A stretch of DNA of 64,000 nucleotides from Candidatus Obscuribacteraceae bacterium (GCA_044226015.1 JBGAHS010000007.1:480001-544000); one strand, 5' to 3'. Shown: positions 4,419-17,175, numbered from the stretch's first letter. Numbers and translations: made by a program. The notes: generated from the sequence alone by a model not told the origin.

Positions 4419-5876
4419 GTGAGATTTACTCCCAGCGCTCTGCTTTTTCGGGCTTATCTAATGCTTTGCGTTCTCAATTTTGTGTTTTCCTGGCTATACG
4501 GATTGTTTTCTCTGTGCTCGCCTGACATTAAGTACTTTCAGAAGGATGTGGCGGCGCAACTAAGCTCTATTGAGCGCCGGCTGGCAGAGGGCGGAGCCAA
4601 CTGGCAAGGACAATTTCAGCCAGAAGGTAAAATTTTTTCCTATGGCTTTTACGGTTTGAGCTTGATTAATATTGCTGTTGAGAGGAGGGCTGACTCTCAA
4701 GCTATTGCCACTACCCTGGCAAAGTTGGAGCTGCTGATTCCTCAACTTGAGACATGTGAAAGCGAATATCCTTTCACTTCTTGTTCCAAGCTGAGCCCTA
4801 AGGGTGGTGTCATAGCTGCTGGAATTACTAATTTGGTACGAGCCGGTTATGTTTTTCTTGGCGGGAAAAATCAAAGGGTCATTGAGTCGTTTCACGGACG
4901 CTCAGCCGCTCTGGCGGCTGCGTTCTCGGAATCGAAATTACCATTCCTTGAGAGCTTTCCCGGGCTGCGCTGGCCGGTGGACAACTGCTGTGCCATCGAA
5001 TCGCTTCGGTATCATGATAATCTGTTTTCCTCTGACTATGCCAGGTTGCCTTCGCAACGTTGGGAACAATGGCTAAGAGCAAATGCCGACACTAGCACCG
5101 GAATGATGATTGCTCAAGTCAGTGCAGATGGGCATACCATTGATGTTCCCAGAGGTTGTGCGCTTTCGTGGACGCTTTCGTTTAGTCCTGGATTTGCTCC
5201 TGAGTATGATAAAGAGCAGTACTCTCGATTTCAAAAATATTGGTTTTTGCCCGTGATGGGTACCCTCGGCATAAGAGAGTGGTCAGAGGGGCAAGAGAAA
5301 TTTTCGAAAATACAGGAGGGGCCAGTCTTGTTCGGAGTTGGCGCTGCAGCAAGCGGACTCGGCATAGCTGCGACCCATGCGCATTCTGATGGACAAGCAT
5401 TTGTCTGTCTCTTGCGTGGATTAGAATCGATTGGCTTTCCCAGCATAAATTTGCAAGGAGAGAAATCCTATTTTGGTCAGCTCTTCTTGCTCGGTGACAT
5501 TCTTGCATTGTGGGGAAAGACCTGTATTGTTTGGGACCGTGCTCAAGATAGTGCTTCCTTCTGGCATGATGCGTCGAGCCTGCCAGATTTTTCAAAGCCT
5601 CTCATTCTCGCTGTATTAATAAGTGTTGTTCTGACTATGTCATGTTTTGCCTATTTCTTTGGGGGCATTCGTCTGTTTCGTTCGAGATTTCAGAGTTTAG
5701 AAAGGCGCGATTGGAAGCTTGCATCAGTTGCATTGCTCGCCATTCTTTCAAACCTTTGCTTTCCTGGCTTCCTTTGGATATGGACTGTCCTGGTCTTGGT
5801 GTGCATTCTGTGGGTGGAAAAGTGGAACGCCACCATCAGGAAATTCTCTTCTTCAAGTTCAGCAGAGCGCACATGA
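4419..5876 (+). CDS. membrane-anchored protein with a linalool dehydratase/isomerase-like (alpha/alpha) barrel segment
   Basis: N-terminal TM, three C-terminal TMs; LESFPGLRWPVDN..AIESLRYHDNLFSSDY...RW..W resembles the Ldi-family S-L-x-x-x-D-x-L-x-G-T-D-Y segment. ORF certain, function tentative. Confidence 0.55.
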   Translation: MRFTPSALLFRAYLMLCVLNFVFSWLYGLFSLCSPDIKYFQKDVAAQLSSIERRLAEGGANWQGQFQPEGKIFSYGFYGLSLINIAVERRADSQAIATTLAKLELLIPQLETCESEYPFTSCSKLSPKGGVIAAGITNLVRAGYVFLGGKNQRVIESFHGRSAALAAAFSESKLPFLESFPGLRWPVDNCCAIESLRYHDNLFSSDYARLPSQRWEQWLRANADTSTGMMIAQVSADGHTIDVPRGCALSWTLSFSPGFAPEYDKEQYSRFQKYWFLPVMGTLGIREWSEGQEKFSKIQEGPVLFGVGAAASGLGIAATHAHSDGQAFVCLLRGLESIGFPSINLQGEKSYFGQLFLLGDILALWGKTCIVWDRAQDSASFWHDASSLPDFSKPLILAVLISVVLTMSCFAYFFGGIRLFRSRFQSLERRDWKLASVALLAILSNLCFPGFLWIWTVLVLVCILWVEKWNATIRKFSSSSSAERT

Positions 5877-6547: not shown

Positions 6548-8203
6548 CTAGACCTCTTCGGAAATCATTGAAGAGAGTTCGTTGTAGCGCGATTGAAGAA
6601 CCTTCAAGTTCATACTGAAGACAGGGTCCACGAGCTCCTCATTGCGTAACTGGTCAAGCAGCTTTATTGAGTGCTTGATGGAAATGCGCAAACCTTCATT
6701 TATTTCTGAACTACCAACCTCTGCAACTTCATATAACGGAATGCTTGCATCAAGAAGTGAGGCAAGGGTCTCGGCTGCTACGACTTCCGCATCGCTCCAT
6801 CGTTTTGATTGTCCGGCAACTTGCTCTTTCCATGCCTCGAATGATTTCCGCGGGTGCAATTTGTTGGGTGAACTTACTGAAACTGCTTTTTCCGGATTTC
6901 CGCCCCATGTCAGAGTCTGTTTGTATTCTGGGCGGAAAATCAGCAAATAGCCATGCAGCATTTTTATTGCAATTAGACCTGAGGCTTTCTCTTCGTTGCC
7001 CTTGAAGATCTCAAAGGTGGCTGGCAAACGATTGGTAAAAAATATACTCGACCGCTTCTCTTCTCGGAGACTTTGCACCAGGCTCTGGATTGTTGCTGTA
7101 GCAATTATTTCGCCGCACTGTCCCTCAGTATTTCCATCTTCGGAAGCGTAAATCACAGCGCTTGCATCGAATAAACGAAGGGACTTCTCGCCAATCGAAT
7201 CAAAGAGAGAGAGCCTGTTTTTTGACTCTAGAATCTTTTGACCTATGCTGGAAAATTGCGACACCAGTTGTAGTGCATCCTTCTTTATAATGCTGGCAAG
7301 ATGCTCTGAGGCAAATTTGCCTATGAACTCACATACAGAACGAATCCAGTAGTTCGTGTATTTTGCAGTGCTGTGATGACCGGCAATTAGCCCCCATAGA
7401 CGACCATTAACAATAAGCGAAATTGTCAGGCTCGCGCCGACATTCATGTTCTTCAGGTACTCAATGTGAATCGGCGACGCTTGTCTCAAAGCACTAAGAG
7501 TCATATTGATTGGGCGTCCCCTTCCAGCCGAATGTGAGGGAACCAGCGGAATCGATGGACTGTTTACATCAGCAATCAGGCGGGTCCAATTTGCCGTAAA
7601 GAGCTTTCTTGCAGGCTCTGGAATATCGCTGGCCGGGAAATGATTTCCCATGTAACTGTCCATGCCAGGTCTGAGGTCCTCACCGACGACCTCACCATGC
7701 CAATCTTCATGAAATTTATACAGCATGACCCGTTCTAACCCAGTGACCTTTCTGACACAGCGAACAAGTTCTTCCGCAAATTCCTTGACCGTATTTGTTT
7801 TAGATAAAGTTACGATGCATTCCTGAAGTCCAGAAGCAGCGTTGTCTGCATCATGCATGTCTGTTGACTCATCTCTAGGCTCGAGTTCAATAATCATGCA
7901 GCCGTCGCTAATGTGGGCAATTGCGTTTGCTTTGATTTTGCTTCCAACAACTCCAACAGGCACCAGTGCCCTGTCCTTGTTACTCGCAAACGAATTTAGT
8001 GTTTCAAGTTGTCTTTCCGAAAAAAAGGCGGAACAATGTTCGCCAATAATGCTCTCGGTACTCTCTTCCAGCCAATCAGAAATGTTTGCAGAAGTTTGCA
8101 CTACGTACATTGAACCATCAAGTACCAACAAAGCACCGTAACTCTGAATTTCATTTATGTATGCCACCGGCTCTCTGTCACAATTCGACTCGTCTACTTG
8201 CAC
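6548..8203 (-). CDS. bphP: bacteriophytochrome photosensory core (PAS-GAF-PHY) without a catalytic output domain
   Basis: N-terminal CDREP (biliverdin-attachment Cys), RVMLYKF, FPASDIP, LRQASPIHIEYLKNM, LWGLIAGHH, PHY tongue WGG...PRKSF..W; only ~55 aa follow the PHY domain. Confidence 0.92.
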   Translation of the reverse strand: MQVDESNCDREPVAYINEIQSYGALLVLDGSMYVVQTSANISDWLEESTESIIGEHCSAFFSERQLETLNSFASNKDRALVPVGVVGSKIKANAIAHISDGCMIIELEPRDESTDMHDADNAASGLQECIVTLSKTNTVKEFAEELVRCVRKVTGLERVMLYKFHEDWHGEVVGEDLRPGMDSYMGNHFPASDIPEPARKLFTANWTRLIADVNSPSIPLVPSHSAGRGRPINMTLSALRQASPIHIEYLKNMNVGASLTISLIVNGRLWGLIAGHHSTAKYTNYWIRSVCEFIGKFASEHLASIIKKDALQLVSQFSSIGQKILESKNRLSLFDSIGEKSLRLFDASAVIYASEDGNTEGQCGEIIATATIQSLVQSLREEKRSSIFFTNRLPATFEIFKGNEEKASGLIAIKMLHGYLLIFRPEYKQTLTWGGNPEKAVSVSSPNKLHPRKSFEAWKEQVAGQSKRWSDAEVVAAETLASLLDASIPLYEVAEVGSSEINEGLRISIKHSIKLLDQLRNEELVDPVFSMNLKVLQSRYNELSSMISEEV

Positions 8204-8206
8204 GCT

Positions 8207-9646
8207 TTACACCTGTTCTTTCTTAATGGGGATTCTGAGTATGAAAGTTGAGCCTTTCCCGTACTCACTTTGGCAAGTCAGTGAACCATTAAGGGCTTTT
8301 GCGAGTTGGCTGCAAATTGATAAACCTAGTCCTGTGCCACCAGGTTGTCTGCCCGTGGCTTTTCCTCCTTGTACGAATGGTTGAAATATAAGGTTCAATT
8401 CGCTCTCTTCAATTCCGATTCCTGAATCGCTAATCGAGAACTGTAAGAACATATCATCGTATGGAACGGCTTTGATGGTGACATTGCCTTTCTCTGTGAA
8501 TTTCAGAGCATTGTGTATCAGGTTCGTGAGTATTTGTCGCACTTTAACCTGGTCACCGGTGTACAAGGGCTCTAGTGCTGGGGAAAGCTCCAAATCAAGT
8601 TGAAGATTCTTTTGCTCAGCCAGAGGTGCCATCTGTGTCTTCACATCATTGAGCATTTCTGAAACAGAGAATTTGTTGTCAGAAATGGTGAACTCACCTC
8701 GTTCAATCTTTGCAAAATCGAGAATTTCATTGACCAGTGCCAGCAAATTTTTTGCAGACTTGAAAATCATCGGTGCTAGTTCTTCGGTCGTTTGAGTATC
8801 TGGAGCCTGACAAAGAAGCTCAGCACCCGATACAATGCCCGAGAGAGGTGTTCGAATTTCATGGCTGACATTTGCAATGAATTGGGAACGCATTTGTACC
8901 GCTTGCTCCGAAACACGGTACATTTTCAACAGCTGCGTAGTAACGGCTTCAAGTGCTGAAGTTCTTTCTTCAACCTTGCGTTCTAGCATTTCTTCATTAA
9001 GCTTTCGTTCGGTCACGTCTCGCAGAATAGCAAGGCAAGCAGGCTTACCGCTCCATTGAATTTCTGTTACCCGCATTTCTGCAATCGAGCGATCTCCCTT
9101 AAGGTTAAGAAGATCAATTTCAGTTATGTCCCCACTCACAGCCGGGTAGCCAAAGTCTTCATTCAATTCGAGTTTATTTTGAAAGAATGCGGTAGCGGCT
9201 GGGTTCATATACAAAAGTTTGCCGTCTTCGTCTATCACGAGTATGCAGTCAGTGCATTTCTCGATAATGTTACGAACCTCTCCATCGCGCTGTCTAAGTG
9301 CTTTGCTGAGATTCTGCCGTTCAGCCAAATCACTTACTCTGGTTTCCAAAGTCTCAATTATGTTCAAAACCGACTCTTTGCTTTCTGTCGATTCCGTGAT
9401 TTTTAGAACAGGAATGTTCTTTCCACCAGTTAGAAGGTCTTTTCTGAGTTCCCATTGCTCACCAATAGCGGTGCTTAGAATGACTGCGTTGTAAGAATTG
9501 CTATCGAGATTTAAGGAGCCGTTGTGAAGCTGCTCTTCCGTGATGACATCGGCCAAAATATTCGCCGTTGCTGATAGCCGATCTCGAATCAGCCGCGCGT
9601 TACGCGCGTCAGCAGTCACTACAATCACTTTGTATGGTGAATTCAT
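8207..9646 (-). CDS. cytoplasmic histidine kinase: degenerate receiver - PAS - HisKA - HATPase_c
   Basis: H-box FIANVSHEIRTPL, N-box ILTNLIHNALKF, DSGIGI, GGTGLGL; PAS YMNPAA..RDVTERK; ATG at 9646, 10 nt after the kaiC stop. Confidence 0.92.
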   Translation of the reverse strand: MNSPYKVIVVTADARNARLIRDRLSATANILADVITEEQLHNGSLNLDSNSYNAVILSTAIGEQWELRKDLLTGGKNIPVLKITESTESKESVLNIIETLETRVSDLAERQNLSKALRQRDGEVRNIIEKCTDCILVIDEDGKLLYMNPAATAFFQNKLELNEDFGYPAVSGDITEIDLLNLKGDRSIAEMRVTEIQWSGKPACLAILRDVTERKLNEEMLERKVEERTSALEAVTTQLLKMYRVSEQAVQMRSQFIANVSHEIRTPLSGIVSGAELLCQAPDTQTTEELAPMIFKSAKNLLALVNEILDFAKIERGEFTISDNKFSVSEMLNDVKTQMAPLAEQKNLQLDLELSPALEPLYTGDQVKVRQILTNLIHNALKFTEKGNVTIKAVPYDDMFLQFSISDSGIGIEESELNLIFQPFVQGGKATGRQPGGTGLGLSICSQLAKALNGSLTCQSEYGKGSTFILRIPIKKEQV

Positions 9647-9656
9647 AGTGAGACCC

Positions 9657-11150
9657 TTACTCATCAAACATGTGGTCAAGTCGCGTGAGTTCATTTTGTG
9701 AGTGTTGAACCGGATTACCCGCCAGGATTCCCGTAACATTGAGGAATGGATCGCCGATGTGCATTCCATCATGATCAATGCTGAATTTTCTGATTTGTTT
9801 GTCGTGCATTGAACCTCGCATCTTCAGAACTGTGATGCCTCTCTGCATTTCTCCATTCAACTCAACGTAACGCAATAGAATGATGCTATCCGTGATTGTG
9901 GAAATGTGTGATTCCGTTATCGATGGTCCACCTAACAATGACGGAGTCGTCGAAGTGAGCAAACCTGCAATTTCTTTTTCTTTTAAGAATGAACTCAAAC
10001 TCAACACGAATTCTCTAAATGCCTTCGGCAGTGAGATTCGCTCGAGAGCTGAGAGGCTGTCTACAGCTACGCGGCTGGGCTTGAATTCTTTGATTGATTT
10101 TTGCATGTTATACAGATGTTCTTCGAGACTCGATGTTTCTGGATATTGGCATCGGACGGACAAAAGATTTTTCTGTTCCAATTCTTCAAAGTGCATTCCC
10201 CATCCGGTCGCGTTTCGGAAAAATTGGTCTTTACTTTCTTCAAAAGCGAAGACCATTGCTCTTTCACCTTTTACTGCAGCGCCATTAGCGAAGTGATTTA
10301 CCGTAAGCGATTTGCCTGTTCCGGTAGCTCCTGAAACTAATATGATGGAGTCTCGGAAGAAGCCGCCACCACACATAGAATCGAGCTCATCTACCCCACT
10401 GTGAATTCTCGTTGTGGAAGACCTCTGTGTAAGAGACATTGAAGAGAGTGGGCTAAATGTTAATCCTATGTCCTCGAGAATAGTGAAAGGGCATTCTCCC
10501 TTTTCGTGGTTAGAACCGCGAAACTTCAATATTTCGATTGTGCGCCTTCTTTTCTCCAAATCCAGCGGGTTGCGCAAGAGCACCACGTTGTCTGCGACAA
10601 ACTCCTCCACCCCAAACTGCGAAATGGCTCCGTAATCACTATTGCGTTCTGCTGTGACTATGGAAGTGACCCCGAGCTTTTTCAGCGCTGACACAATAGA
10701 GAAGAGCTCGCGTCTGACGAGCTGATTATTGTCCAGCTGTGAAAACAAAGCTCCCAGGGAATCAAAAGATAGTCTGGTGGCGTTAACTTCTTGTACCGCG
10801 TATTTTATTCGCGCGATAATTGCGGAGAGTTCAAAGTCACCGCTGATGTGGGTTTCCTCATCTAAGATTGGCGATATATCCACAAACGCCCACCTCTTTT
10901 CCTCTTCCCACTTCTTAATATCCCATCCGAAGGCGGCGAGATTATCGCGAATATCTTCAGGCGTCTCTTCAAATGTGACGAAAACACCATTCTCGTTAAA
11001 TCGTTCAATTCCCATAGCTAGAAACTGCGCAGCAAAAAGTGTCTTGGCACTGCCCGCAGTGCCTGCAACAAGAGTGGCTCTGTTGCGCGGCAAACCGCCA
11101 TGCGAAATATGATCAAAGCCCTCAATACCAGTCTTGAGTTTATTCGTCAT
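9657..11150 (-). CDS. kaiC: circadian clock protein KaiC (double RecA-like ATPase)
   Basis: CI GTAGSAKT/TFEE, CII GATGTGKS/AFEE; ITESHISTITDSIILLRYVE keeps the tandem S-T phosphosites (S417/T418 here); KMRGSMHDKQIRKF; A-loop-like GILAGNP and C-terminal tail. Confidence 0.96.
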   Translation of the reverse strand: MTNKLKTGIEGFDHISHGGLPRNRATLVAGTAGSAKTLFAAQFLAMGIERFNENGVFVTFEETPEDIRDNLAAFGWDIKKWEEEKRWAFVDISPILDEETHISGDFELSAIIARIKYAVQEVNATRLSFDSLGALFSQLDNNQLVRRELFSIVSALKKLGVTSIVTAERNSDYGAISQFGVEEFVADNVVLLRNPLDLEKRRRTIEILKFRGSNHEKGECPFTILEDIGLTFSPLSSMSLTQRSSTTRIHSGVDELDSMCGGGFFRDSIILVSGATGTGKSLTVNHFANGAAVKGERAMVFAFEESKDQFFRNATGWGMHFEELEQKNLLSVRCQYPETSSLEEHLYNMQKSIKEFKPSRVAVDSLSALERISLPKAFREFVLSLSSFLKEKEIAGLLTSTTPSLLGGPSITESHISTITDSIILLRYVELNGEMQRGITVLKMRGSMHDKQIRKFSIDHDGMHIGDPFLNVTGILAGNPVQHSQNELTRLDHMFDE

Positions 11151-11158
11151 TCAGCACC

Positions 11159-11449
11159 CTATGAATTTCCTGTACCATCATTTTCAGAGCAAAGGTCTAG
11201 CCTCTGTCTGATGAAATCCGTATCTCTGAGGTCACCAACTATTCGCCGCTTCGGTAGAGGTAGTGTTCTAACCAGCATTGGAGTAGCAAAAACCTTTTCC
11301 TTTTCGGCAATGTCCGGATTTTGAATTATGTCTACGATTTCGAACTCTATTGAGTCGCCATCGCAAATTGTTTTTAGATGATCAATAGCCCGGGCCGTCC
11401 GACTGGACGTCCCCGCGACATAAAGAATTAAGCGCTTTTTGCCTACCAT
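11159..11449 (-). CDS. kaiB: circadian clock protein KaiB
   Basis: LILYVAG.S.R..RAI..L..IC, IVDI..NPDIAE..KVFATPMLVRTLPLPKRRIVGDL; probable start MVGKK at 11449 (ORF track 11494). Confidence 0.95.
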   Translation of the reverse strand: MVGKKRLILYVAGTSSRTARAIDHLKTICDGDSIEFEIVDIIQNPDIAEKEKVFATPMLVRTLPLPKRRIVGDLRDTDFIRQRLDLCSENDGTGNS

Positions 11450-11625
11450 AATCATCAGGACACTTTTCCAAATATCCGCTAAATAGTACTCCATCGTTGA
11501 TGCAATTTTTTTGAATCGGTTCCGACTCTTTTATGCGTTTTTCATAAAACTTCGGCTAAGTTACTACAATCTATTAATAGGTAATTCTGATTGCTAAAAT
11601 TGAATAGTCTGAGCCCAAGCCATTG

Positions 11626-12432
11626 ATGTTTAAAGAAAACGATTCCTACCAACTCTCAGTTTTAATAGTTGATTCTGATTCATCAGATAGACGAGCGATT
11701 GTGCGCACCCTCGCTCAACTTGCGGATGAAGTCCAAATCACTGAGGGACAAACATGTCGTGAAGCCTATGAGCTACTCGTGTCAAAGCAATTCGACATTG
11801 CGTTAATTTGCCAGGACCTTCCAGATGAACTTGGTACCGATCTGCTCGTGCGTTTGAAAGATGAAGGACGATTAGATGCGCCTGTGATCTTGCTAACAAG
11901 TACAGATGACATTGGTGAGGAAGTTATTCGGCTAGGTGCCCATGAATTCATCAGCAAGCAGTCTCGAAGTTTACAGCAGTTCAAGAAATCCATTCGATAC
12001 GCTATTGAGAGGCACCGTCTGTGGCGCGAATTGGTGGAAACTAAATTGCGTTCCGCCAGAGAACGCGAGCTAAGCTCGTTTGAAGCACCTGACTCGAATG
12101 TAACCGTTCAACCTGATCAGAATGCGTTTGAAGAACAGTTTGATAATCTTGTCTCAGAGTATTCGCGAATATTTGAGGAATTTTCGTTGGATAATTCGTA
12201 CAAGAGAGAGCTGAAGGCATCGGCAGCTCTGGTACGAGCGTTCGCGGAGCGAGTAGGGCAAATTGGCTTGGGTCCAAAAGAACTTGTGAGTATACATAGG
12301 AAATATTTGCAGCAAGCTGTAGAAGGCAAATCTTCTTTGCGTGAACAATCGTTGATGAATGAGACGCGCTTTTTTCTACTTCAATTAATGGGAGAGTTGC
12401 TTCTGTATTATCGTGATCGCAAGAAGGACTAG
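11626..12432 (+). CDS. kaiA3: receiver-like domain fused to a KaiA-C-terminal-like helical domain (KaiA3-like)
   Basis: N-terminal REC fold (VLIVD, LPD, PVILLT, FISK). C-terminus LVSEYSRIF...GPKELVSIH...ETRFFLLQLMGELLLYYR parallels the KaiA Y..I / P..I..IH / R..L...L..L...YR pattern; divergent from kaiBC. Confidence 0.75.
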   Translation: MFKENDSYQLSVLIVDSDSSDRRAIVRTLAQLADEVQITEGQTCREAYELLVSKQFDIALICQDLPDELGTDLLVRLKDEGRLDAPVILLTSTDDIGEEVIRLGAHEFISKQSRSLQQFKKSIRYAIERHRLWRELVETKLRSARERELSSFEAPDSNVTVQPDQNAFEEQFDNLVSEYSRIFEEFSLDNSYKRELKASAALVRAFAERVGQIGLGPKELVSIHRKYLQQAVEGKSSLREQSLMNETRFFLLQLMGELLLYYRDRKKD

Positions 12433-12524: not shown

Positions 12525-13733
12525 TTGAAATCCGTTGCAGAAATTGGTACAACCACGTTTTGCCACTCGAGAGGCTGGGACCCGACTTTGAACATTTTCA
12601 AGATATGTTTGCTTTCCGCATCGATTCTATTTCTGCAAAATCAAGTTCCTTCATGGGCCGATGACACGTCTCCTGATGCTCCCGCCTCCGCAGAGAATGG
12701 CCCGCCGACTACGACAGATTCGAGTTCCATGAACCCGAATGAGCAAAATTCCGATGATGCCACTGCCGCTGCGTCTGCCCCAGATAATCCGGCTGATGTT
12801 GCGGCTTACTCTGGCGACCTGGGAACTTTAGAGAACCAGTTGTTTCACGCTAATTTTGCCTCTGAATCGATGCAATCGAGGCTTGATAGAATTGAGCGGT
12901 TAATTTATGGTACTGCTAAGAGTGGCACAGTAGCTGAGCGAATGAAAGAACTGCTCACTGATGTTCACATGCAGGCTCCGACTGCGAGCCCGCCTGCAAG
13001 CTCAGGGCCTGTCGCTGCTGCCCCCAGCTCAGCACCTGACGCCCCGTCTCAGAACACCCAGAATTACGAGACACAGTCCGAACAGCCGGAAAGTTCTCAA
13101 GGTAGCCAGTCTTATTATTATCCGTCCCAGAATGCTGCCGCTGGAGCCAATGGCTATCAAAACAGTGCTCAGGCTAATTCTATGACTGGGCAAGCCACTA
13201 TCAAGGGACCGCAAAAATCCTCATCTCTAAAGGCTGAAGTTTCGGCTATGGAAATGCAGGTATATCAAAAGACTTACAATGACAGTCTTAACAGTCGTGT
13301 CGCGCGCCTGGAACAAACAGTTTTCGCCAATCAGCCGCCCCAGCATTTTTCATCCTTACCGCTTCGAGTCAACAATTTGGCTTCTGCACTGCAACCGGCT
13401 TTTGCTCATCCTCAAAATCTATATGAAAGCACTCCTGTGCTGGCGACTTCCAAAGAATCAAAAAAGAGCGATGAAGAGAAGCAAAAGAATGGACATCCTT
13501 TCTTAAAGAAGTTGGGGGCTGAGTTAGCCAGGGGCGCTATGATGGCTGGTTCAATGGCTGGAAGCATGGCTGTATCAAGTATGATGAACGGTGGCTATAG
13601 CAATGGCTATGGTGGCTATGGCGGCGGCTATGGTGGCTACGGTGGCGGTTATGGAAACTACGGTGGCTATGGCGGTTACCCTCCGTTTGGCGGCGTGAGC
13701 AATTTTTCAGGACTGGCAGGAATGCATTTCTAA
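12525..13733 (+). CDS. secreted hypothetical protein with two RL.R.E..(I/V)(Y/F) repeats and a Gly/Tyr-rich tail
   Basis: Signal-peptide-like segment; SRLDRIERLIYG and SRVARLEQTVFA repeats; C-terminal GGYGGYGGGY. Confidence 0.75.
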   Translation: MKSVAEIGTTTFCHSRGWDPTLNIFKICLLSASILFLQNQVPSWADDTSPDAPASAENGPPTTTDSSSMNPNEQNSDDATAAASAPDNPADVAAYSGDLGTLENQLFHANFASESMQSRLDRIERLIYGTAKSGTVAERMKELLTDVHMQAPTASPPASSGPVAAAPSSAPDAPSQNTQNYETQSEQPESSQGSQSYYYPSQNAAAGANGYQNSAQANSMTGQATIKGPQKSSSLKAEVSAMEMQVYQKTYNDSLNSRVARLEQTVFANQPPQHFSSLPLRVNNLASALQPAFAHPQNLYESTPVLATSKESKKSDEEKQKNGHPFLKKLGAELARGAMMAGSMAGSMAVSSMMNGGYSNGYGGYGGGYGGYGGGYGNYGGYGGYPPFGGVSNFSGLAGMHF

Positions 13734-14470: not shown

Positions 14471-16090
14471 ATGATTGCTGTTACGCAAAAGCAAAGAAGT
14501 GAAAGAGGGCAAGCCGTCGCGCTTCCTATGCTGATGTTAGGGCTGATGGTGGTAATGGTTGTTGGCATGTTTTCGTTTGAGTTGGCCAGAACTGCGGTGG
14601 CTAGAGAGCAGCTTCGCACAGCCACCGAGGCGGCAGCACTTGCCGGAGCCGCCACCCTGGCTGGTTCGCCATCCACTGATATTTCCATTTCGCAGAAGAA
14701 TGCAATTTCGGCTGCCAAAGCGATGTTCAAGCAAAATGAAATCTTTGGTACTTCGTTAAAAAATACCACCGAAGGTTCAAGCAAGTTGCAAGCTGAACAA
14801 GCGAATTTGACTTTTCAATTCATAGACCCACAGAACAATAATGCACCAGTTGCCGCAGGTGACCCAAAGGGAAAAGCTCTCGAAGTGAAATCGGCTTATG
14901 GACTGCCATCAGTGGCTGGAAAGTTGATCGGATTGGGTAATGCAACTCTCCCTCTCGAATCAAGAGCCACCGGTGGCGTCGGGCAGCTCGACGTTGTGTT
15001 CTGTTTTGATTGTTCTGGTTCAATGAGATTTCACACTTTCACAACATCAGTTAAGAGAACATGGAATGCGACTACCGGAAAGATTGATTATGTCGAAACT
15101 TCGCATACCAGTTATAGTCCGAGTGGTGGCATGGAGCCACAACAACTTTACTCGTTAAACGCAGCGCTTCGTGGCGAAAACGATAATGCTAAACCTGGTA
15201 ATTTTCCTCCTGGAGTTGCAACAGACGATGGTTTCACCGATCAGGTCGTTAACTTCAATGAGCAAAACAGCTTTTCGAGTACATCTGAAGGTGGTTTTGA
15301 TTTCCCTAATGTGGCGGTTCTTGTCGAAGCTTCGAGGGGAAATCTTGAGAGCGATGCCGTTTTTCAATCCAGCGGTGCCAACACAACCCTTCGTGGAATA
15401 GTCACACCAAAAGCCGGTTACCAGGCTAAGTATTTCGAATTGGCTCGCAAGCACACGCATCCATGGGCAGAGGCTGAGTCTGCTGCACAAGAGTTCTTTT
15501 CTCTGATGAGCAATAACACCAGAGCTCATTTTGGTCTGGTGGCATTTAACCAGGCTGCTGGTCAAAACGAACAAACAAAATTTAATGACATGCGTGTCGG
15601 ATCTGGCTATCCACAAGGTGGCGCTAAAGATTTCCCCTTGCCTGCAATCTCGTTGAAACCTGAGCAAGATAAAACAAATGCTAATGAAGTAAAGGCTGCA
15701 GTCGGAACCCTTGTTCCAGACGGTAATACCAATATTGGTGCCTCGATAGAAAGAGCAAATAGAATGTTTGAAGATAAGACAAGCCGTCCTAATGCGAAGC
15801 GCGCAATCGTATTATTTACAGATGGAACTCCATCACAAGGACAACCTCTAAGTGGAGACCCTCTACAAAATTGCCGACTAGCTGCTCAGCAGTCAAAACA
15901 AAAGGGCGTTGCGATTTACTCTGTTGGTTTAGCGCTTGACCCTTCCGAACTCCAGAGTCAGAAAAGTGTTTTGACAATGATCACCAATACAGCAGGAAAT
16001 GGCGGTCAATTCTTTCAAGTAACCAACGCATCGAATTTGAATAGAGCGTTCGGCGCAATCGCAAGAAATCTAACCCAAATTGTTCAGTAG
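14471..16090 (+). CDS. TadG-like pilus protein with vWA domain
   Basis: ERG/QAV prepilin-like N-terminus, QLRTATEAAALAGA Tad motif, MIDAS DCSGS, GNTNIG, LFTDG. Confidence 0.88.
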   Translation: MIAVTQKQRSERGQAVALPMLMLGLMVVMVVGMFSFELARTAVAREQLRTATEAAALAGAATLAGSPSTDISISQKNAISAAKAMFKQNEIFGTSLKNTTEGSSKLQAEQANLTFQFIDPQNNNAPVAAGDPKGKALEVKSAYGLPSVAGKLIGLGNATLPLESRATGGVGQLDVVFCFDCSGSMRFHTFTTSVKRTWNATTGKIDYVETSHTSYSPSGGMEPQQLYSLNAALRGENDNAKPGNFPPGVATDDGFTDQVVNFNEQNSFSSTSEGGFDFPNVAVLVEASRGNLESDAVFQSSGANTTLRGIVTPKAGYQAKYFELARKHTHPWAEAESAAQEFFSLMSNNTRAHFGLVAFNQAAGQNEQTKFNDMRVGSGYPQGGAKDFPLPAISLKPEQDKTNANEVKAAVGTLVPDGNTNIGASIERANRMFEDKTSRPNAKRAIVLFTDGTPSQGQPLSGDPLQNCRLAAQQSKQKGVAIYSVGLALDPSELQSQKSVLTMITNTAGNGGQFFQVTNASNLNRAFGAIARNLTQIVQ

Positions 16091-16118
16091 TTTGAAATAC
16101 ACCAAAAGGAATTACAAA

Positions 16119-16646
16119 ATGTTCAGTCGCAAGAGAAATTCAAAAGGGAGTTCGATTCTGGAATTGCCAGCAGCATTGTGGTTAACATTGGTTGTCTTCC
16201 TATTGCCCCTCATGTCCCTCGCTTCCATAACCTTGCGTTGTACGCTTTTGAATGTGGCAGTTCTAGAGTCGGTTCATGCAGCATCAAAGGCACGGACATT
16301 CGAACAAAGCAGTGACGAGGGTGCTTCCGCTATTCAGTTAGCAGACCAAGCCTTCGAAAGATATGTCAAAGCTTTTCCAGGACTTGATGCGGACAAAGTA
16401 AAGTTGCGCATCGTCAGCACCGATATTAAGTCTGGTGCAATAAGCAGCACTAATGAGAAGCTAAAGAACCCAGCTGACAGTTCTGGTTTTGTGTATCAAG
16501 TCGAAGGTGATTGCACAGGAAAAATTGAGCCCGTGTTTGCCATGAGTCGGGACATACTCGGTGATATTCCGGGACTGTCCTCGGCAATGAAAGTTAGCTT
16601 CAGTGCTAGAGAAATGTGTGAGAACCCCCAGGGGTTAAATCGTTAA
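16119..16646 (+). CDS. TadE/TadF-like pseudopilin
   Basis: KG/SSILE prepilin motif (G, +5 Glu) followed by a TM helix; AAAGGA RBS before ATG 16119. Confidence 0.8.
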   Translation: MFSRKRNSKGSSILELPAALWLTLVVFLLPLMSLASITLRCTLLNVAVLESVHAASKARTFEQSSDEGASAIQLADQAFERYVKAFPGLDADKVKLRIVSTDIKSGAISSTNEKLKNPADSSGFVYQVEGDCTGKIEPVFAMSRDILGDIPGLSSAMKVSFSAREMCENPQGLNR

Positions 16647-16650
16647 AAGA

Positions 16651-17175
16651 ATGACTGATTGTATTCGAAAGAGTTTTGGAAAAAAGATTGAAAGGAATTT
16701 TGAAATGAAAAGACGTGTTATGAAAGTGAATCGGAAGAACTCTCGTGGATCTGTTGCGATCGAGATTGCAGCTGGAGCACTTGTTTCGATAGGGTTGATG
16801 GCATTGGCACTCAATGTTTGTTTCGGTATGTTGGCTTATGGCGTCAATGATCGCGCTTGTCGCGAAGCTGCTCGAGCTGCAGCGCAGCAAAGTACACTGG
16901 CTTCAGCCAGCAGCATTGCAAAATACGTTGTGAATGGCTTCAATCAGAATAACTCATACATGAATAAAATTCAGGTTACACGCGTTGTGTTCACCGACTT
17001 CAATGGTCTTCCGCCTGAAGATCAAAGTCCATTTGTTTCTGTCACCACAAGCTCCTCGGTAGCCACACCTGCACCTATCGCTTTCTTCGGTCAAAAAGTG
17101 TTTGGCGAATCGATTCCTGTTCAGAAGACTTATACGTTTCCAATCGTTCGTCTGAATGTAAACACCAACTCCTGA
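16651..17175 (+). CDS. TadE-like pseudopilin
   Basis: RG/SVAIE motif, TM, ACREAARAAA TadE signature; true start may be ~16705-16720. Confidence 0.85.
   Translation: MTDCIRKSFGKKIERNFEMKRRVMKVNRKNSRGSVAIEIAAGALVSIGLMALALNVCFGMLAYGVNDRACREAARAAAQQSTLASASSIAKYVVNGFNQNNSYMNKIQVTRVVFTDFNGLPPEDQSPFVSVTTSSSVATPAPIAFFGQKVFGESIPVQKTYTFPIVRLNVNTNS

Follow-up and report, generated by a model that had tools for sequence, protein, structure and literature searches.

KaiA3-KaiB3-KaiC3 sets of two cyanobacteria have been published as oscillating in vitro, with a damped rhythm of low amplitude. According to the main text of Koebler 2024 (PMC11372060), the phospho-acceptor Asp65 is kept by most KaiA3 members, with Pleurocapsa and Microcystis named as exceptions; that text also states that the cognate kinase of KaiA3 is unidentified, and leaves the signal input to KaiA3 open. 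The word phytochrome occurs in the same main text only within the title of a reference on CikA. It describes Synechocystis CikA as a true chromophore-binding photoreceptor whose clock role is unclear, so the premise of a preliminary description of the present DNA, that cyanobacterial clocks have no dedicated photoreceptor, carries a caveat. Outside the cyanobacteria, many KaiC systems are reported as stress-related in the published excerpts available to us.

The locus considered here lies in a stretch of 64,000 nucleotides (hereafter the window) from a Candidatus Obscuribacteraceae bacterium (GCA_044226015.1, JBGAHS010000007.1:480001-544000). Its core is the published KaiA3-KaiB3-KaiC3 system; the linkage to a phytochrome gene is the part for which no published account was found in a literature search covering mostly the main texts of non-subscription papers.

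Gene content of the locus and its host genome

The five genes and their orientation are as previously described, and the coordinates reproduce the gaps of 8, 10 and 3 nt that separate kaiB, kaiC, the kinase gene and the phytochrome gene. The features are as follows:

6548..8203, minus strand: phytochrome (kinase-less bacteriophytochrome), 551 aa, PAS_2-GAF-PHY plus a tail of ~60 aa (Pfam; PDB bacteriophytochrome matches)
6551..6727, minus strand: phytochrome C-terminal tail, residues ~493-551 (alignments; AlphaFold)
8207..9646, minus strand: histidine kinase, 479 aa, with Asp-less pseudo-receiver, PAS, HisKA and HATPase
9657..11150, minus strand: kaiC, KaiC3 group, 497 aa (NF006799 and TIGR02655 above cut-off; identity; tree)
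11159..~11455, minus strand: kaiB, ~98 aa (Pfam KaiB, E=1.4e-18; alignment)
11456..11622, no strand: AT-rich intergenic spacer, about 173 nt, 35% GC, presumed site of both promoters
11623..12432, plus strand: kaiA3, 269 aa, pseudo-receiver plus KaiA-like helical C-terminal domain (residues ~165-268)

None of the five reading frames is damaged. The kaiB gene, the only one in the genome, has an ambiguous start codon (11449, 11455 or 11494). The divergent gene for a receiver protein with a KaiA-like C-terminus does lie across an AT-rich spacer, at 35% GC against 46% for the window. A promoter scan was at chance level (10 sites versus 9.9 expected), as was a terminator scan; from gene spacing alone, kaiB, kaiC and the kinase and phytochrome genes are predicted to be co-transcribed.

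KaiC matches NCBIfam NF006799 at 684.7 bits (cut-off 408) and also passes TIGR02655. It retains, as first reported, both ATPase domains, the tandem Ser-Thr phosphosites (S417/T418, corresponding to S431/T432) and a short C-terminal tail, together with both catalytic EE pairs and the P-loops GTAGSAKT (CI) and GATGTGKS (CII); the GSAKT variant in CI also occurs in named cyanobacterial matches, e.g. Gloeothece PCC 7424. Identity is 63-64% to cyanobacterial KaiC3, 52-55% to KaiC1 and 33-40% to KaiC2, and with no extended C-terminus the protein belongs to KaiC3 by domains, motifs and identity. The KaiC phylogeny proposed in the preliminary description was run as a quick tree of 70 rows, which places the protein outside the KaiC1 and KaiC2 clades (support 100 each) and leaves the KaiC3 group as a polytomy. 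Membership of the canonical KaiA1B1C1 type does not hold, KaiC lying outside the KaiC1 clade and the KaiA-like protein having no PF07688 match.

A KaiA3-type oscillator gene set is present, comprising kaiA3, kaiB and a kaiC of the KaiC3 group. The window KaiA3 is 23% identical over 279 aa to a 299-aa cyanobacterial KaiA3 (E=9e-11) and aligns with KaiA1 in hhalign (E=3e-4), and the best three PDB matches of its C-terminal profile are to KaiA (E=0.002-0.005), RsbU scoring less well. In its predicted model the C-terminal part forms four helices (mean pLDDT 84), and fold searches with the model returned receiver domains alone (Z about 17). The architecture is that of KaiA3, an N-terminal receiver followed by a C-terminal KaiA-like helical bundle, as is the synteny, the gene adjoining kaiB and kaiC though divergently. 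The phospho-acceptor differs: where the 299-aa cyanobacterial KaiA3 has Asp65, the window protein has Cys63 (codon 11809-11811), and Cys, Thr, Gly or Ser occupies that position in 10/10 close orthologues. Since published exceptions exist in Pleurocapsa and Microcystis, the missing Asp does not disqualify the protein; Asp-less KaiA3 is also found without a linked phytochrome in G003 and several cyanobacteria.

The host genome is Obscuribacterales-like and 92% complete, with no second KaiC. A non-photosynthetic host had been proposed, and the PsbA and PsaA families indeed had no match in the genome, while a positive control did match. The description of the locus as self-contained did not survive, because it encodes neither a heme oxygenase, of which the genome has one on contig C8, away from the kai locus, nor an Asp-bearing response regulator. 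A recent foreign origin of the locus was considered and is not supported, since its tetranucleotide distance stands only at the 65th percentile among 466 genome windows.

Phytochrome and kinase

The phytochrome has no HisKA and no HATPase domain in Pfam searches. It is of the biliverdin type, as had been proposed: Cys8, DIP193-195, His246, Tyr249, His276 and PRxSF 451-455 are all intact, and a heme oxygenase is encoded elsewhere in the genome. At what we take to be the GAF position used by Cph1 there is no Cys. The motif residues are invariant in 9/9 aligned proteins of 544-556 aa, and the eight orthologues (38-83% identity) every one end within that range of lengths; on this comparison of sequences the protein is apparently under constraint. 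In a full-library profile search only three representatives matched through the tail (648-991 bits, the next scoring 402), and a DNA search across 107 genomes of the order did not find a close orthologue of the gene.

The conserved tail is a candidate output surface; AlphaFold places helices in it at residues 503-520 and 527-549 with pLDDT under 50. It has no family match, and an ESM Atlas search yielded no usable match. A by-eye resemblance to a degenerate DHp was set aside, as hhalign against 89 phytochrome-kinase segments matched only the shared PHY helix. A complex prediction for two copies of phytochrome residues 285-551 with the KaiA3 receiver scored 0.01, short of the mark of 0.32.

The kinase gene, whose orthologues come after kaiC in seven aligned relatives, encodes His262 in SHEIRTP and intact HATPase N/G boxes; its N-terminal pseudo-receiver without Asp was recognized by hhalign at 97% probability. 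With a kinase-less phytochrome, and with no Asp in the receivers of either KaiA3 or the kinase, a light-to-KaiA3 phosphorelay cannot run in the window. The classical route from light through kinase to receiver is thereby ruled out for this copy, and any light coupling would have to proceed by protein contact. A canonical BphP kinase with its cognate response regulator is absent from the window and present at two sister loci, G027 and G088.

The missing output domain, the two receivers without Asp and relics at sister loci would all fit a degenerating locus in which the phytochrome is the truncated, decaying remnant of a phytochrome-kinase. We consider this very improbable, as nine proteins down to 38% identity share its length, tail and chromophore residues, the five reading frames are intact and the tail has no detectable DHp homology.

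Phytochrome linkage in relatives and beyond

The linkage recurs in relatives, so the objection anticipated in the preliminary description, that it might be conserved in none, does not apply. Several close relatives with kaiA3/kaiC nonetheless have no phytochrome there or a deleted one. Five contigs matched by size (16834, 22704, 10321, 68590 and 14075) apparently each carry orthologues of the phytochrome, KaiA3 and KaiC, and window-type linkage would appear common to five relatives, as judged from matching contig sizes rather than contig DNA. In G027 and G088 an intact phytochrome-kinase gene lies directly upstream of an Asp-bearing kaiA3, divergent from kaiBC, and in G089 a different, tail-less phytochrome lies 2.5 kb upstream of kaiA3BC. 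In G019, G105 and G108 the bphP-kinase of G027 and G088 survives at its position as deletion relics, both ends being retained in G019; in G098 kaiA3 and a phytochrome are on separate contigs. A heme oxygenase was found in G000, G027, G088 and G089. The closest sequenced genome, G003 (KaiC 78%), keeps kaiA3, kaiB, kaiC and the kinase, with no phytochrome or relic near its kai locus and none detected genome-wide; the phytochrome link is dispensable.

Among genomes of the family that have both KaiC3 and an intact phytochrome, the phytochrome adjoins the KaiC3 locus in four of the five with kaiA3 and in none of the nine without it (Fisher p=0.005, or 0.014 excluding the window, for genomes that are kin and not independent), a figure of 0/9 that is weakened by kaiC lying near a contig end in four of those nine. 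Random placement would give an expectation of 0.04 for such adjacency. The states of the partners also match: the kinase-bearing phytochromes occur with Asp-bearing KaiA3 (2/2) and the kinase-less ones with Asp-less KaiA3 (the window clade and G089).

The Kai proteins might form a non-rhythmic or one-shot switch for stress or energy, with the phytochrome and the Kai complex feeding the operon's histidine kinase, which integrates light and ATP status, and no daily timing. The order kaiBC and then kinase is the usual non-cyanobacterial layout in the available text of de Luca 2011 (PMC3164672) and at many of 80 loci, Kai proteins of Legionella and Pseudomonas are described in stress roles in the excerpts available, kaiA3 is missing from 12/21 family kaiC3 loci, and the window phytochrome gene adjoins, at 3 nt, the kinase gene and not kaiA3. 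This account is rather doubtful: intact phytochromes are adjacent only where kaiA3 is present, despite a downstream kinase at 8/9 kaiA3-less loci (the ninth, G120, is cut by a contig end), the phytochrome-kinase of G027 and G088 adjoins kaiA3 itself, and KaiA3B3C3 of two cyanobacteria oscillated in vitro.

The phytochrome might also be a mere co-regulated neighbor or an output, its expression gated by Kai or a shared promoter and its signal directed at unrelated targets. Signaling genes often cluster, and this phytochrome has been lost repeatedly. Kinase-less phytochromes are frequent as stand-alone genes in the family, including a second orphan in the window's own genome, and since their contexts vary they have non-Kai roles. 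On the best trees, the phytochromes of the window, of G027/G088 and of G089 fall into three separate clades, although a single-clade origin of the window-type and G027/G088 proteins was not rejected (AU test p=0.09, 24/58 rows used). We judge a neighbor without input to be improbable, because recurrence at the same module, in up to three phytochrome lineages, far exceeds random placement, and because mere neighborhood leaves the matched kinase and Asp states unexplained.

Outside the family, a phytochrome was found in the operon at 0/80 metagenomic kaiC3 loci and 0/26 cyanobacterial kaiA3 loci. A first metagenome scan using kaiA3 gave no match, a plasmid search gave three distant kaiC records, and in an Acidobacteriota-centred sample KaiA3 matched 2/401, with a phytochrome near neither. 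In the cyanobacterium G146 a cph1-like gene lies 3.6 kb from kaiA3B3; this adjacency is likely coincidental, because the gene comes with a receiver gene of its own, is separated from kaiA3B3 by three unrelated genes and is not so placed in four congeners.

A proposed light-biased timer and comparison with known systems

The chances seem evenly balanced that the locus is a KaiC phosphorylation timer whose state is biased by red/far-red light through protein contact, not phosphotransfer. By analogy with Synechocystis KaiA3B3C3, KaiC3 would autophosphorylate at S417/T418, stimulated by the KaiA3 helical domain and opposed by KaiB. The pseudo-receiver-PAS kinase, whose motifs are observed, would signal the state of Kai to a response regulator whose gene lies outside the locus. 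The phytochrome, to judge from its motifs, would bind biliverdin supplied by the unlinked heme oxygenase at Cys8 and photoswitch; in the least supported step, its conserved two-helix tail may bind the Asp-less receiver of KaiA3 or of the kinase in a light-dependent manner. G027 and G088 would represent a phosphorelay version, in which light would phosphorylate KaiA3 because the phytochrome-kinase gene adjoins an Asp-bearing kaiA3. The light module is an accessory that has repeatedly been lost. A bolder proposal, which we regard as unlikely and put forward tentatively, is that in Obscuribacteraceae-like bacteria, which are non-photosynthetic sisters of cyanobacteria, a KaiA3BC3 clock sustains itself and is entrained through a phytochrome dedicated to it, wired in one of two ways: a phytochrome-kinase phosphorylating the KaiA3 receiver, as its missing cognate kinase, or, in the window, kinase-less contact with an Asp-less KaiA3, parallel to the canonical KaiA pseudo-receiver.

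The family bears on the input and cognate kinase of KaiA3 and on Kai-based daily time in non-photosynthetic bacteria, and it offers a small purifiable test system in the five window proteins and the sister loci with a light-regulated kinase gene adjoining an Asp-bearing kaiA3. Should light reset KaiC phosphorylation via the phytochrome, a Kai oscillator in a non-phototroph would be receiving input directly from a photoreceptor, of which we found no example in print. Synthetic work would then also gain a protein timer that can be switched by light, and the result would be relevant to whether daily timing in the phylum depends on photosynthesis.

Biliverdin bacteriophytochromes of known structure (PDB 9jry, 8uph, 6bap and 4r70) share the PAS-GAF-PHY core, N-terminal Cys, DIP and PRxSF with the window protein, which differs in having no enzymatic output and a clade-specific tail of ~60 aa. 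A link between a bacteriophytochrome and KaiC has been proposed in Myxococcus macrosporus, likewise a non-phototroph (available text of PMC11832031); there the bphP operon has no kai gene, kaiA was not found and the link is speculative, whereas the window joins a phytochrome to a full kaiA3BC3 set. In Ramlibacter (de Luca 2011, PMC3164672) and Bradyrhizobium ORS278 (BRADO1478-1481, PMC3899966) a kinase gene adjoins kaiC or kaiB, as in the window, and co-transcription of kaiC and kinase was shown by RT-PCR in Ramlibacter. Unlike the window, neither kai operon has a reported phytochrome in the available texts of these papers, the Ramlibacter phytochromes are at distant locus tags, and Ramlibacter has neither kaiA nor kaiB.

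Synechococcus elongatus KaiABC with CikA/SasA also combines an Asp-less KaiA pseudo-receiver with a pseudo-receiver kinase (in part from the main text of PMC11372060). Its KaiC1 forms a separate long-branched clade, outside which the window KaiC falls, and its CikA senses plastoquinone redox, not light, whereas the window has a full PAS-GAF-PHY sensor. The KaiA3-KaiB3-KaiC3 system of Synechocystis sp. PCC 6803, as given in the same main text, is likewise clustered and comprises a receiver plus KaiA-like activator, KaiB and a KaiC3 of ~500 aa; both KaiC proteins have the Ser-Thr sites and neither has the extended KaiC2 tail. Synechocystis-type kaiA3 is upstream and co-oriented, whereas the window kaiA3 is divergent with an Asp-less receiver, and the window adds a pseudo-receiver kinase and a phytochrome after kaiC, in a non-photosynthetic host with a single KaiC.

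The Kai core and its host genome

All five genes of the locus lie in the window where the preliminary description placed them, and the gaps it gave for the minus-strand run of kaiB, kaiC, histidine kinase and phytochrome (8, 10 and 3 nt) are correct; the divergent spacer before the receiver gene measures 173 nt at 35% GC. The window is part of contig C10; the genome, 92% complete, measures 8.19 Mb, and the locus is native to it in composition. This genome contains a single double-domain kaiC, a single kaiB, one heme oxygenase (contig C8), a photolyase-family gene and a second, tail-less phytochrome (contig C6). The proposal of a non-photosynthetic host is borne out, as no PsbA- or PsaA-family gene was detected in it by a search that gave matches in a Synechococcus control. 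Elsewhere in the window, a cluster of Tad/TadE-like and vWA genes (14471-17175; Pfam Tad and VWA on 14471-16090) is probably pilus-related, and two long ORFs, at 4419-5876 and at 12525-13733, the latter with a C-terminal Gly/Tyr-rich repeat, have no Pfam matches at E 0.01.

KaiC scores above the cut-offs of the curated KaiC models and retains S417/T418 as well as the two P-loops and the two EE pairs; its nearest named match is from Candidatus Obscuribacterales (78% identity), the basis on which the family is assigned here. Matches in cyanobacterial genomes form three identity bands: 63-64%; 52-55%, where a canonical kaiA adjoins 23 of 26 scanned loci; and 33-40%, with reading frames of 550-600 aa, like KaiC2. 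The suggested comparison with the KaiC1/2/3 clades, made as a quick tree of 70 rows, leaves the window protein outside the clades of the two lower bands; it falls in the KaiC3 group, where family genomes and close orthologues join it in a clade of 15 rows (support 96). The divergent gene aligns over its full length with a 299-aa cyanobacterial KaiA3 (23% identity, E=9e-11). The top three PDB matches of the KaiA3 C-terminal domain profile are KaiA structures (E=0.002-0.005), with RsbU ranking lower, the same signature as that given for KaiA3 by Koebler 2024 (PMC11372060). From a KaiC3-group KaiC and a KaiA3-like divergent gene with a KaiA-type C-terminus we identify the locus, on sequence grounds, as a KaiA3-KaiB3-KaiC3 set. 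Such sets are already published and widespread, and kaiA3 is present at 43 of 80 metagenomic kaiC3 loci.

Several variants of this set were observed. The kaiA3-kaiB-kaiC cassette is duplicated in tandem on one metagenomic contig (L170:1701-7239). In relatives G097 (L084:7524-10841) and G098 (L085), kaiC is preceded by two kaiB-domain genes and a shortened KaiA3 of 214-225 aa with no Pfam receiver match. Three small genomes of family f8, in the same class as the window, have KaiA3-like C-terminal domains whose surroundings, to about 7 kb, contain neither kaiB nor kaiC (L253:7774-9528 in G465, L254:7825-8715 in G461 and L255:7299-8255 in G045, the last with no KaiC match); the domain may have a Kai-independent role. 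At L107:5583-7211, L149:6033-7643, L150:6457-7680, L176:5696-7627 and L257:6767-8245, the KaiA3 C-terminal domain is joined to histidine kinase or PAS domains in place of the single receiver, which shows that inputs to this activator are interchangeable.

Parts of a possible signal route

In the window phytochrome, PAS, GAF and PHY domains are present but, a point missed earlier, no kinase domain. A one-off truncation is ruled out by eight orthologues (38-83% identity), all of 544-556 aa, in which Cys8, DIP, His246, Tyr249, His276 and PRxSF are kept and a ~60-aa tail is common to all. This tail is predicted, at low confidence, to be helical, and has no detectable homology to DHp; in a profile search of 1.84 billion representatives, three matched through it, far apart from the rest. 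Bacteriophytochromes without an output domain, of about 495-540 aa and with tails of 8-46 aa, make up at least two further clades in the family and occur as stand-alone genes (L031:9513-11012, on C6 of the window genome, and L039, L041, L044, L049, L051-L053, L055, L056, L058, L063 and L065).

The phospho-Asp position of KaiA3 is Cys63, and the Asp is also missing in all ten of ten close orthologues. In the operon kinase the H box and ATP lid are intact, and the N-terminus is an Asp-less receiver. Since the phytochrome lacks a kinase and both receivers lack the Asp, a classical phosphate route from phytochrome to KaiA3, or from kinase to receiver within the locus, is impossible here.

Phytochrome linkage in relatives

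Our family sample comprised 104 genomes, with KaiC at ≥57% identity in 21, a KaiA3 domain in 9 and a phytochrome in 49; the DNA around all 20 other family kaiC3 genes was read for neighbours. The window-type link appears to be kept in relatives, some close relatives lack it, and none was found outside the family. Its conservation is indicated indirectly, by matched contig sizes: five lengths (16834, 22704, 10321, 68590 and 14075) each occur for a phytochrome, a KaiA3 and a KaiC orthologue alike. In G027 and G088, an intact phytochrome-kinase gene immediately precedes a kaiA3 that encodes the Asp, the pair being divergent from kaiB-kaiC-kinase; this gene is the best candidate seen for KaiA3's cognate kinase. 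G019, G105 and G108 carry broken pieces of this gene at the same position; thus all five subclade members have the gene or a relic.

Phytochrome-kinase genes and relics in the subclade
L026:11087-14042 (G027), phytochrome-histidine kinase gene, overlaps or abuts Asp-bearing kaiA3
L080:6791-10017 (G088), phytochrome-histidine kinase gene, overlaps or abuts Asp-bearing kaiA3
L027:8653-8983 (G019), deletion relic beside kaiC or kaiB
L082:8859-9008 (G105), deletion relic beside kaiC or kaiB
L083:10955-11123 (G108), deletion relic beside kaiC or kaiB

The G019 relic, between kaiC and kaiA3, retains sequence from both the first and the last codons. With kaiB not detected in G019 and kaiA3 not detected in G105, the relics suggest stepwise decay of the module. 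In a further relative, G089, kaiA3 encodes Glu in place of the Asp, and a phytochrome without the tail lies 2.5 kb upstream of it.

Where a family genome has KaiC3 together with an intact phytochrome, the two are adjacent in four of five cases with kaiA3 versus none of nine without, four of these nine having kaiC near a contig end (Fisher p=0.005, or p=0.014 with the window left out, the kin not being independent); random placement would give 0.04. In trees, the linked phytochromes fall in three clades, and a single origin of the window and G027/G088 types is not rejected (AU p=0.09).

The linkage is also missing from several relatives. The closest sequenced genome, G003, has kaiA3, kaiB, kaiC and the kinase but neither a phytochrome nor a relic of one; none was detected in G097; in G098 it is on a different contig from the Kai genes; three relatives lost the gene by deletion; and kinase-less phytochromes are common orphans in the family. 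Outside the family, no phytochrome was linked to kaiC3 at 80 metagenomic loci, of which only 20 could be read for 4 kb or more in each direction, and 45 selected neighbour proteins from 15 of these loci included no photoreceptor family (E cut-off 1e-12). None of 26 cyanobacterial kaiA3 loci has a phytochrome in the operon. One has a cph1-like gene 3.6 kb off, part of a cph1-rcp1-like pair downstream of kaiA3-kaiB3 (L258:11632-14332, G146); this arrangement was not seen in four congeners and is likely coincidental. The phytochrome-Kai linkage is real, restricted to the lineage and dispensable.

Light input and known systems

What the sequences show is the gene content, the motifs, the losses of kinase and Asp, and the recurrence and loss of linkage. 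By analogy to Synechocystis, whose KaiA3-type cycle in vitro is ~24 h and damped (Koebler 2024, PMC11372060), KaiC phosphorylation could serve as a timer, with output passing from the operon kinase to a regulator elsewhere in the genome; the phytochrome would photoswitch with biliverdin and feed light into the timer. The best hint that it acts on KaiA3 is the pairing of kinase-bearing phytochromes with Asp-bearing KaiA3 and of kinase-less ones with Asp-less KaiA3, although Asp loss also occurs without a linked phytochrome. We give an even chance that light feeds functionally into the Kai timer, and consider a true light-entrained circadian clock, as first proposed, rather improbable.

The literature searched yielded no account of phytochrome linkage to kaiA3BC3, nor of Obscuribacterales Kai genes, although one listed paper (PMC10438808) contains both 'Obscuribacter' and 'kaiC'. 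The locus lends itself to a clear, cheap biochemical test. Operons of kaiBC with a kinase have long been known (PMC3164672), and a phytochrome-KaiC link in a non-phototroph was proposed earlier, without gene linkage (PMC11832031); the Kai core is familiar, and what appears new here is its linkage to a phytochrome.
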